Part shown: positions 14,627 to 16,657 of the stretch, in pieces
How positions within the stretch are numbered: position 1 is the first letter of the stretch
How the letters are laid out: each line of letters opens with the position of its first letter
Assembly (NCBI RefSeq): GCF_963678845.2
Contig: NZ_CAXXOR010000005.1
Coordinates: 251,567 to 315,566 of the forward strand
Source of the DNA: an uncultured Bacteroides sp.
Lineage (GTDB): Bacteria; Bacteroidota; Bacteroidia; Bacteroidales; Bacteroidaceae
Length of the DNA: 64,000 bases
Direction of reading: 5' to 3'
Position numbers and translations under genes: made by a program
Notes under the pieces: model-generated
What the model was told of the DNA's origin: nothing
The model's database searches: none
Seen by the model: only the letters and a program-made list of their open reading frames with translations

Positions 14627-14820
14627 TGATTATCAGCAATATATTTATTCCGGTGGTGTAGATGGTGTACATAAATCGTTCTTTTTTCGTTCTGAAAAAT
14701 AAAATTCCGAGAATTCTGCAAATTGCGGATTTTTAAAAATTAATTTTCTGAAAGCTGAAAAAACTCTTTTTATGTACACCATCTACACCACTATCGGGCT
14801 TTCCTAGTTTAGTAAAGTAT
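14627..14820. repeat. 194-bp palindromic unit, copy 1
   Basis: Perfect 23-bp IR gtggtgtagatggtgtacataaa (14653-14675 / 14769-14791) around a 93-bp AT-rich core homologous to copy 2. Confidence 0.85.
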
Positions 14821-14963
14821 TGATTAATAAGCATGTATATTTTTATAGGTGGCAGATCCTATGTTTGCAATAAATATGCTGAAGTGAAAAAATAAGAAAC
14901 ATAAGCTAAGAGTATTTTTTATATTTGAGGTACCAAACTTAAACATTCAAATATTCAAAGCTT

Positions 14964-16043
14964 ATGCGTACACAAAGTAACAAAGTAAATTTCAATGGAG
15001 AAAATATTTATGTTGGAATTGATGTTCATCTAAAGAGTTGGGCAGTGACAATCTACACAGAACATTTGCATCATAAGACTTTTAGTCAGCCACCGGTTCC
15101 CATATTATTATGGAAATATCTGGATGAAAATTTTCCTGGTGGTAATTACTATTCTGCTTATGAAGCCGGATTCTGTGGATTTCATATTCACTTTGAACTG
15201 GAAAAGTTGAATATAAAAAATATAGTAGTCAATCCCGCTGACATACCGACCAGTCAAAAGGAACATGTGCATAAGAATGATTCTTGCGATAGCAAGAAAA
15301 TAGCCCGTTCTCTGAGAGCTAAAGAACTCACCGGAATACATATTCCATTGATTGAGACCTTAGAAAATCGTTCTTTAGTTCGTTCTCGAGAAATCTTGGT
15401 CAAGGATCTGGTTCGTTTCAAACAGCGAATAAAGTCTTTTCTTTATTTTTATGGGATAGCCTATCCTCCTGAATTTGAAAAGTCATCTTGTCATTGGTCA
15501 AAACGCTTTCTTAAATGGTTAAAAGAAATATCCCTAAATACGCAAAATGGAAATGAAGCATTATCCCTATTAATAAGAGAAGTAGAACAACAGCGCCTTC
15601 TTTTATTAGAAGTGAATAAGAAAATTCATAGCTTGGCTATTTCTGATAAATATATTAAAGAGATGGAATTAATAAGAAGTGTCCCCGGAATAGGCTTGAT
15701 TACAGGACTTACTTTTCTATTGGAAATAGAAAATATAGAGCGTTTTTCTAACACGGACAAGCTAGCCTGTTTTGTAGGAATAATACCGACTTGTCATTCG
15801 AGTGGAGAAACTAGTAATAATGGAGAAATGACCTTTAGAGGGCAAATCCATTTAAAGAAAGGTCTGATTGAAAGTGCTTGGGTTGCTTCAAGAATAGATC
15901 CAGCTCTAACACATAGCTTTATTAAGCTTTGCAAAAGAATGGAACCCAATAAGGCAATCATACGAATTGCGAGAAAGTTGTTAAACAGAATATATTATAC
16001 TCTAAAAAAGGAACATAAATACGAATATGGAATGGTTAAATAA
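14964..16043 (+). CDS. IS110-family DEDD recombinase/transposase
   Basis: YVGIDVH, AYEAG and KNDSCD give the D-E-D-D tetrad; SVPGIG HhH-like segment and PTCHSSG conserved Ser; 359 aa, no frameshift. Confidence 0.95.
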   Translation: MRTQSNKVNFNGENIYVGIDVHLKSWAVTIYTEHLHHKTFSQPPVPILLWKYLDENFPGGNYYSAYEAGFCGFHIHFELEKLNIKNIVVNPADIPTSQKEHVHKNDSCDSKKIARSLRAKELTGIHIPLIETLENRSLVRSREILVKDLVRFKQRIKSFLYFYGIAYPPEFEKSSCHWSKRFLKWLKEISLNTQNGNEALSLLIREVEQQRLLLLEVNKKIHSLAISDKYIKEMELIRSVPGIGLITGLTFLLEIENIERFSNTDKLACFVGIIPTCHSSGETSNNGEMTFRGQIHLKKGLIESAWVASRIDPALTHSFIKLCKRMEPNKAIIRIARKLLNRIYYTLKKEHKYEYGMVK

Positions 16044-16068
16044 TAATACCCATATAAAATCTGTATAA

Positions 16069-16205
16069 AGAGTGACCGCTAGCCACTTCTTGCAGCTTTG
16101 CCTGCTTTGGCAGATTGCGGCCTCTTTCCTATTGAACTGAAAAGGATTATGTAGAAACTGAAAGAATCAGTTAGAACTACTTATAGAAGGTTGTTTTATA
16201 TAGGA
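16069..16205 (+). ncRNA. Putative bridge/seekRNA core (target-binding loop 16069-16125, donor-binding loop 16126-16205)
   Basis: Two stem/internal-loop/hairpin domains whose loop segments match the reconstructed target and donor junction; transcript ends unknown. Confidence 0.75.
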
Positions 16206-16657
16206 ATTTACTAATTATTATTGAGACTAGAGAAACATGTATAATAGGTTTTTCTAGCCATATAGCGATATCTGTAACATAAAAAGAGGGGAAAATCATA
16301 CAGACTGTCCCCTCAAAATGATGTTACAGCGTAACGCAGGAAGTTTATTGCTGGCAAGTTGCTCCTCAGCAGAGCTTGTTTCCTCTTCAACTTCCTGATT
16401 ACAAAGCTAATAAAAAGTATAATAAATATTAATAATACTCTTATAATTTGGATTACAACATAGAAGCAGTGGCAGCAAAATAACACTTTTTCCGATTCTG
16501 AAAAATATATTTTGATAATTCCGCAAATTGCGGATTTTTAAAAATTTTATTTCTGGAAAGGTAAATAAGGCTTTTTTCCTGCCACTGCTACCACCTAATT
16601 AATTCAGCACAAACAAAATACCTTTGTCAAGGCAATAAAAATAAACCTTCGTTTTTA

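Follow-up and report, generated by a model that had tools for sequence, protein, structure and literature searches.

Palindromic units with class-specific iteron arms in Bacteroides: candidate DNA sites of VirE/BT4734-like primase-helicases

Organization of the locus

A stretch of 64,000 nt from an uncultured Bacteroides sp. (contig NZ_CAXXOR010000005.1, positions 251,567 to 315,566) was analyzed. It is referred to as the window, and coordinates without a contig label are positions in it. The genome is 4.19 Mb and is 98% complete. Between the genes for an S41 peptidase and a GH43 protein, the window contains two long palindromic units, the second of which is split by an insertion sequence (IS). 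The units belong to a dispersed repeat family. A unit of this family is probably the cognate DNA site of a primase-helicase, most likely a site of the replication-origin type. The window pair has no replicase gene and represents an orphan dimer, with unit 1 of arm class A and unit 2 of arm class B. Linkage to a replicase gene is found in the family and not at these two units. The features of the locus are as follows.

14434..14493, no strand assigned: module X, a 60-bp hairpin with three AAACATGTACAAGATTG copies, two direct and one inverted
14627..14652, + strand: upstream flank of unit 1, TGATTATCA..N..ATATTT, conserved and promoter-like
14653..14675, + strand: left arm of unit 1, class A, with direct 9-mers GGTGTAGAT and GGTGTACAT, then AAA
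14676..14768, + strand: AT-rich core of unit 1, 27% G+C compared with 37% for the genome
14716..14728, no strand assigned: central 13-mer of unit 1, CTGCAAATTGCGG, an imperfect palindrome
14769..14791, + strand: right arm of unit 1, exact reverse complement of its left arm
14821..14845, + strand: upstream flank of unit 2, TGATTAATA..TATATTTTTA, conserved
14846..14855, + strand: left arm of unit 2, first part, TAGGTGGCAG, the first class B 9-mer up to the IS junction
14856..16466, + strand: IS110-family insertion sequence, 1611 bp, IS1111-like layout
14964..16043, + strand: DEDD transposase gene of the IS, 359 amino acids, PF01548 and PF02371
16082..16091, + strand: putative guide segment 1, GCCACTTCTT, complement of the right junction AAG[A/C][A/G]GTGGC
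16108..16115, + strand: putative guide segment 2, TGGCAGAT, same as the left junction TGGCAG/AT (slash, point of insertion)
16467..16480, + strand: left arm of unit 2, second part, CAGTGGCAGCAAAA, the second class B 9-mer
16481..16573, + strand: AT-rich core of unit 2, 25% G+C, centre A16527
16574..16597, + strand: right arm of unit 2, 22/24 complementary to the rebuilt left arm

Unit 1 is a quasi-palindrome of 139 bp (14653-14791) centred on A14722, and its 69-nt arms are 71% complementary. The outer arms (14653-14675 and 14769-14791) are complementary at 23 of 23 positions, as determined from the sequence with a repeat finder. As single-stranded DNA, the unit folds at -36.3 kcal/mol. The value for 200 shuffled sequences was -10.2 +/- 2.7 kcal/mol (z = -9.8), and no shuffle was as good. 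The hairpin of unit 1 is not due to chance.

Unit 2 is interrupted by the 1611-bp IS, with AG at both junctions. When the IS is removed, a 22/24 inverted repeat is restored. This reconstruction is confirmed because uninterrupted paralogues and orthologues have AGGTGGCAGCAGTGGCAGCAAAA at the point where the IS splits the unit. The spacing between the two centres after excision is 16527 - 1611 - 14722 = 194 bp. Both units contain a 24-nt core string, the central palindrome TCYGCAA-A-TTGCGGA, and TGATTA..TATATTT flanks. An earlier description made from the letters of the window, here called the sequence-only reading, had reported a perfect 23-bp inverted repeat in the first copy, a 22/24 repeat in the rebuilt second copy, an exact 194-bp period, and homologous cores, central hairpins, and upstream flanks. 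All of these were recovered here.

A dispersed repeat family

Approximately 21 units at 13 loci were identified in the genome by nhmmer with a profile of both cores. These comprise eight tandem pairs, with a period of 192-195 bp, and five single units. Homology among the eight aligned pairs begins at the TGATTATCA-containing flank of unit 1, covers about 360 bp, and ends with the right arm of unit 2, beyond which the pairs diverge. Thus, the dimer is an old dispersed unit that was not duplicated in place. Outside the window, the units are found near genes for RNase HII, threonine synthase, a LacI regulator, a hybrid two-component sensor, and peptidases, as well as IS elements. At the dimer edges of the eight aligned loci, where a clean empty site was not recovered, no duplication of a target could be seen. 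The unit arms are not shared by the ISs examined in the genome, which were two IS110-type variants and IS3-type insertions.

No relatives were found by blastn in 24 species of the same genus and 16 species of other families. With a core-pattern scan of one genome per species, Bacteroides luti DSM 26991 and four related metagenome genomes were recognized as carriers of the family. A scan of the genus identified the family in 11 of 250 species. These comparisons, together with the copy number in the genome, agree with the earlier suggestion that a repeat family is present and not a one-off duplication. Orphan units are found at the S41 and RNase HII loci in several species. On this comparative evidence, the orphan units are old and stable in position.

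The units are also hit by other elements. An IS3-family element with an rve integrase (296 amino acids) was found inside units at the central palindrome or at the border of arm and core, in this genome (C5:200038-200999 and C5:745308) and in relatives (L065:4243 and L098:386). Thus, the units have been entered by more than one IS family. In B. luti, a class D unit lies apparently beside a broken 3' fragment of a replicase gene, the adjacency being inferred. The loci compared suggest that gene loss may be one route by which orphans arise.

Four arm classes

Each arm contains two direct 9-mers followed by AAA(A), and this arrangement is mirrored on the other arm, giving four copies of the motif per unit. 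A comparison of 68 units revealed only four arm classes, A (GGTGTAsAT), B (GGTGGCAG), C (GGTGTCAG), and D (GGTGGAGAG). The 9-mers of classes B and C differ by a single base. In the dimers, unit 1 is always of class A or D and unit 2 is always of class B or C.

The S41 locus was compared in nine species. In four of these unit 1 has class A arms, and in another four it has class D arms. A single T-to-G change in the outer 9-mer of one species is mirrored on the opposite arm. Therefore, the symmetry of the arms is kept step by step. Several Watson-Crick pair types occur at each position of the arms, and they occur as class switches instead of free drift. The consensus structure obtained with RNAalifold for 63 units consists of the outer arms only. 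The direct 9-mers within an arm also co-vary, which pairing does not require. The sequence-only reading had proposed that arm sequence changed while pairing was kept. Its view of kept symmetry is borne out by the A and D arms at the S41 locus, but the free variation that it implied was not found, as only four classes exist.

Association with a VirE/BT4734-like primase-helicase

Two of the single units are located directly after genes for a protein of 691-699 amino acids. This protein contains a BT4734-like N-terminal domain, VirE, and DUF3874. The same architecture defines the BT4734-like family of archaeo-eukaryotic primases (PMC5862659, PMC11724360). All 22 close homologues compared (10 + 12, with 74-95% identity, from 11 genomes) carry a single unit, which is located at the stop codon or spans it. 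The gene-linked units overlap the 3' end of the coding sequence, and they do not have the flank of the orphan type. The repeat family and the close homologues are confined to the same 11 of the 250 species. This co-distribution is not independent support, as the 11 species are kin.

The association appears to extend to other VirE genes. Repeated motifs or an inverted repeat occur after each of the eight VirE genes of the genome. Clear arrays of direct and inverted iterons are found after five of them, in addition to the eighth, where the array is split by an IS. An 8-mer that occurs at least four times around the stop codon was found for four of seven scorable VirE genes, compared with 15 of 1833 long open reading frames of the genome. 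An independent replicate is found in a related species. A VirE paralogue with 32% identity (G109:C18:1-300) is followed by another palindrome of two plus two 9-mers, GCGTAGGrT, with an AT-rich core of approximately 75 bp. An orphan copy of the GCGTAGGrT palindrome is present at the S41 locus of the same species (G109:C87). As judged from these sequences, the palindrome design is wider than the family studied here.

Some of the cassettes have features of their own. The class B cassette of this genome (C1:918999-920770) has an IS between the replicase gene and the unit, and its left arm would hold three 9-mers instead of two if the IS were removed. In a related genome, a record of 22,450 bp (G042:C2) has a class A cassette that is surrounded by a glycosyltransferase/acyltransferase (polysaccharide) locus. 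The syntenic locus in this genome (C3:1264415-1293633) has a different VirE paralogue at the same position. Thus, cassettes are swapped at a fixed site in a glycan locus. The possibility that the 22-kb record is a primase-helicase plasmid was rejected, as the ends of the record do not overlap and the record shows synteny with the chromosomal polysaccharide locus.

A putative specificity module in the protein

The arm class is not tracked by overall identity of the protein. For example, the class D protein of the genome is 95% identical to a class B paralogue. Identity within classes and between classes is equal over residues 1-660, and it is 0.94 versus 0.58 in residues 661-699. The class-diagnostic columns are all located at residues 667-690, in a predicted recognition helix and wing. 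This segment has the form of a helix, SKKMIxKLGRNLKSL, followed by a beta hairpin. The last 50 residues were predicted with AlphaFold2, for nine sequences and with modest confidence, as strand-helix-helix-strand-strand. When the PDB was searched with the whole protein sequence, a VapE-like ATPase entry that covers residues 374-564 was the only hit.

Four wing classes were found, and they match the four arm classes in 22 of 22 cases. The tails are ..SFRKSRGITQYEV.. for class A, ..QWKRINGYTVYHI.. for class B, ..QWKRVKGKTVYNV.. for class C, and ..KFRxYKGTTQYKV.. for class D. The B and C tails share QWKR..G.TVY, and the A and D tails share FRK..G.TQY. The most similar wings are paired with the most similar 9-mers, those of B and C. 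A gene for an HU-HIG protein is present downstream in the cassettes, and it is 95% identical between a class B and a class D cassette. Therefore, the class block consists of the wing and the unit only. For the same reason, the HU-HIG protein was rejected as a class-specific reader of the arms.

A candidate site of the replication-origin type

From the arrangement described above, we infer that the protein binds the 9-mers and that the unit can fire as an origin. The protein combines an archaeo-eukaryotic-type primase, a VirE ATPase that is putatively a helicase, and a C-terminal DUF3874. The four 9-mers would be iterons, read by the beta-hairpin wing of a C-terminal winged-helix domain. With the arms mirrored, two protein assemblies would face each other head to head across the AT-rich core of 93 bp. 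The core with its central palindrome could then melt, or it could be extruded as a stem-loop of 139 nt. The canonical copy would be the one on the stop codon. Orphan dimers of A or D plus B or C are dispersed over eight loci of the genome, and they are kept at the same loci in relatives.

An iteron-flanked AT-rich origin tied to a primase gene was among the candidates of the sequence-only reading, and the stop-codon units and the co-variation of the wings fit it. The further suggestion that such origins were left by a satellite is not borne out by the cassettes, since an integrase is absent from their surroundings and one of them is located within a polysaccharide locus.

Several observations weigh against the proposed role. 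The genome has orphans of classes A and C, yet its primase-helicase genes are of classes B and D only. Thus, a simple service of the orphans in trans by a resident cognate protein fails in this genome. Three of the nine species have lost unit 2 at the S41 locus, one of them by a clean deletion of the palindrome, and therefore the orphans are dispensable. A conserved flank precedes every orphan unit, and it is not explained by a primase-helicase site. Mirrored single-base changes in the arms of orphans fit base pairing or arm-to-arm correction more directly than reading by a protein. The primase-helicase cassettes, one of which lies inside the glycosyltransferase locus, have neither an integrase nor any other mark of an autonomous replicon nearby. 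The winged-helix assignment is weak, with a pLDDT of 64. A Foldseek search of the PDB with the C-terminal model found no match at E <= 0.001 and none below 0.03, and the weak rows were mostly winged-helix proteins. Finally, the wing and the arm are less than 100 bp apart and there were few independent events, so their correspondence could be linkage within one recombination block.

The orphans may be relics that are silent, they may act as secondary or decoy sites, or they may simply be safe landing pads for ISs. It is unlikely, although worth considering, that the dimers are working chromosomal sites of primase-helicases, with one unit for each wing super-class (A/D and B/C). If so, the dimers could be sites of ectopic initiation, or sites of titration or handcuffing, that control or are exploited by VirE/BT4734-type cassettes, including ones that arrive from other strains. 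Origin-like sites without a gene would then form a network across the host genome, and their specificity could be switched. In that case, the BT4734-like proteins, which are widespread in Bacteroidales and uncharacterised, would also gain a first DNA target and a function that can be tested.

Primase-helicases of the BT4734-like/VirE kind are frequent both in the genomes of Bacteroidales and in loci associated with defence. In the literature searched, including PMC5862659 and PMC11724360, no DNA site for BT4734-like proteins was described. The candidate site proposed here is a stem-loop of four 9-mers, with four natural specificity classes that are matched to about 25 C-terminal residues. Its gene-less copies are kept as tandem pairs at fixed chromosomal loci across species. 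To our knowledge, no parallel for such tandem orphans has been described among sites of the origin type.

Comparison with known systems

The closest tested precedent is ORF904 of pRN1. ORF904 has the order primase, SF3 helicase, and winged helix, and a stem-loop of 100 nt directly 3' of its gene serves as the origin (PMC4234260). A similar stem-loop follows the replicase gene of phage BIP-1, and Berkner et al. (2014) proposed that replicases with such a domain order assemble at such stem-loops (PMC4234260). The C-terminal winged helices of such primase-helicases are predicted to be origin readers (PMC5862659). The units resemble the pRN1 system in the domain order of the replicase and in the stem-loop directly 3' of the gene. 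The importance of stem integrity in pRN1 is a further likeness. However, pRN1 is an archaeal plasmid with an iteron-free stem-loop, and the units are chromosomal, have a stem of two plus two class-specific 9-mers, and occur as dispersed gene-less tandem copies. The units combine stem-loop and iteron features.

The alpha protein of phage P4 binds iterons through a winged helix (PMC4234260). The proteins studied here resemble it, as primase-helicases that would read short repeats through a predicted C-terminal winged helix. Unlike them, P4 alpha has a primase of the bacterial type. In addition, P4 depends on a distant second iteron site of tandem repeats (crr). The origins of SaPIs are located just 3' of rep and have two iteron sets around an AT-rich segment, with island-specific matching of Rep and ori. 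Unlike the units, P4 and the SaPIs are clear mobile replicons with integrases, and their iterons do not form a long perfect palindrome. We know of no dispersed orphan copies described for P4 or the SaPIs.

The linked protein has the defining N-terminal domain of the BT4734-like family together with VirE and DUF3874, as in the members described (PMC5862659, PMC11724360). Specificity modules that match a replicase to its origin are known already. What is new is the candidate site for a BT4734-like protein, the stem-loop built from iterons, the four classes, the dispersed tandem orphans, and an IS pair that is retargeted between iteron families.

Alternative explanations

The units could instead be selfish or neutral hairpin repeats, similar to REP/BIME or MITE repeats, although we think this doubtful. 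Their symmetry would then be produced by the mechanics of DNA, for example by template switching from arm to arm, and no protein would read the 9-mers. The primase-helicase genes would merely adjoin a copy, for example if the cassette inserts at repeats. The dispersal of units in intergenic DNA beside unrelated housekeeping genes would be expected of such repeats, as would the loss of one palindrome by deletion. Repeated insertion of ISs, here of the IS110 type in the arm and of the IS3 type in the core, is also a feature of REPs (PMC1525189). The second, orphan iteron family described below, with approximately 33 clusters and only one gene-linked copy, is compatible with this explanation too. 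The mirrored changes of the arms and the flipped 13-mer described below could be products of intrastrand templating in a hairpin. However, mechanics alone leave the likeness of the direct 9-mers within an arm and the limit of four classes unexplained. The units at 22 of 22 stop codons with class-matched wings are likewise unexplained. The dimers are conserved in position across species and are not polymorphic, and their edges have no signature of terminal repeats with a target duplication.

A Y1/RAYT transposase would be expected for REP repeats. PF01797 had no match in the 98%-complete genome, and control genomes did match. REP/BIME repeats with a RAYT were therefore excluded, and the REP-like candidate of the sequence-only reading was not supported, as the units are 139 bp long, have an AT-rich core, and number only about 21. 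There is a resemblance to the REP/BIME targets of ISPa11 and ISPpu9/10 (PMC1525189, PMC11187229). Both are dispersed intergenic palindromes that receive IS110-family elements by RNA-guided insertion, which is orientation-specific and occurs at one position of the repeat. REPs are G+C-rich, 20-40 nt long, present in hundreds of copies, and tied to RAYTs, unlike the units, which are tied to a primase-helicase.

It is improbable that the orphan unit is a gene for a small RNA. In this case the flank would be a promoter of the Bacteroides type, the transcript would be a hairpin of 139 nt, and a T-run after unit 1 would aid termination. The arm classes would be alternative stems or seeds. The conserved flank contains TTTG and TA..TTT-like elements and, in every orphan, stops a few bases short of the left arm, many unit 1 copies are followed by TTTT, and the hairpin is very stable. 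The spacing of the promoter-like boxes is, however, probably a poor fit to the Bacteroides consensus, and the gene-linked units overlap a coding 3' end without this flank. In Rfam 15, the hairpin had no family at threshold. The best hits were spurious, microRNA-like matches of 27 bits compared with a cut-off of 120 bits. In contigs from Logan for two metatranscriptome and two DNA runs over 13000-17900, no RNA cover was found on the units, but such contigs fragment at the repeats and the result carries no information on expression. The skips in them ran between copies of the repeat and could not serve as empty sites.

The core was explored for signs of an RNA helix. It is 93 bp long with 25-27% G+C, and it is a quasi-palindrome at the family level only. 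The inner core is no more complementary within units (0.66) than between units (0.67). The mismatches show no bias for G-U over A-C (180 versus 164) and no strand bias, with wobble counts of 180 on the + strand and 164 on the - strand. No RNA-helix signal was seen in the core. A few inner core pairs co-vary, and a best-partner scan of the core columns was uninformative. One mismatch persists in the central 13-mer CTGCAAATTGCGG. Across the family, this 13-mer lies in either orientation with respect to the remaining core, which also argues against an RNA loop, and its three asymmetric positions change in concert (19/3/4/13, Fisher p = 0.0002). Flipping of the 13-mer would be expected if a DNA hairpin forms in vivo. 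A structured RNA, which the sequence-only reading had listed, was accordingly not supported. There is no wobble bias and no unit-specific pairing of the inner core, and the pairs of the arms do co-vary, but as four classes and together with the direct 9-mers.

We consider it very improbable that the units are invertons or attC-like sites, on which a site-specific recombinase would act at the 23-bp inverted repeats. Perfect inverted repeats around a short AT-rich segment, a core part found in both orientations, and the use of attC sites as IS1111-type targets (PMC11187229) would fit, but the central 13-mer alone flips and not the whole segment between the arms, and inversion of a quasi-palindromic core would change almost nothing. 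No recombinase, integron integrase, or cassette array was found among the annotated neighbors at the 13 loci, where no dedicated integrase search was made. Integron attC sites, another candidate of the earlier reading, were not supported either. The neighbors are housekeeping genes, ISs, or a primase-helicase cassette, and not integron cassettes, in annotations examined with no dedicated search for IntI. The window pair lies beside ordinary genes, and two loci have a primase-helicase cassette.

The inserted IS and its sister

The element in unit 2 belongs to the IS110 family and has a non-coding region of 423 bp 3' of the transposase gene. Six copies are present in the genome with 99.8% identity. 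Five of the six are located at the junction of the two class B 9-mers in the left arm, and the same position is occupied in B. luti. The element probably sits in unit 2 because its non-coding RNA would carry two short guides for the two sides of the class B junction. In seekRNAs of the IS1111 type, the complement of the top strand comes first and the match to the top strand, which pairs with the bottom strand, comes second (PMC11187229). The order of the putative guides of the IS agrees with this.

A sister IS with 78% identity is present in 12 copies, for example at C1:35343-36947 and C3:101752-103356 of this genome. Its guide 1 is GTTTATCTT, which matches its own right junction AAGATAAAC. 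Its guide 2 is TAGCAGT, which matches its own left junction, and the target is TAGCAG/ATAAAC. The target is an iteron that follows another VirE gene. Comparison of the two ISs revealed that both guide segments differ exactly as the targets differ. The pair thus appears to be a clean example of natural bridge/seekRNA retargeting between iteron families. The earlier claim that an IS1111-type element targets the repeat is upheld by the recurrent arm position and by the match of guides and target.

The sister IS inserts after ..TAGCAG in arrays of T[AG]GCAGATAA iterons. Approximately 33 clusters of this motif are dispersed in the genome, and one of these follows the VirE gene that ends at C3:458718. 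In the IS of the window, CTATGTT is found near both ends, and on each side three bases of the element lie outside it. IS1111-type elements are expected to have sub-terminal inverted repeats with extensions of 7 bp on the left and 3 bp on the right, and the 7-bp rule would not hold for the left extension if the arm has been rebuilt correctly.

Minor features

Module X is located directly after the S41 peptidase gene, and most unit loci have a copy of it. Within the cassettes of the primase-helicases, module X is flanked by the unit and the HU-HIG gene, at approximately 225-260 bp from the centre of the unit. When the spacer from unit to module X was compared between cassettes and orphans, alignment was found in module X only. 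Module X may be a second protein-binding array or an operator for HU-HIG. One copy of the window IS (C5:457459-460050) is itself interrupted by a 970-bp element that encodes a DDE_Tnp_1 transposase of 291 amino acids.

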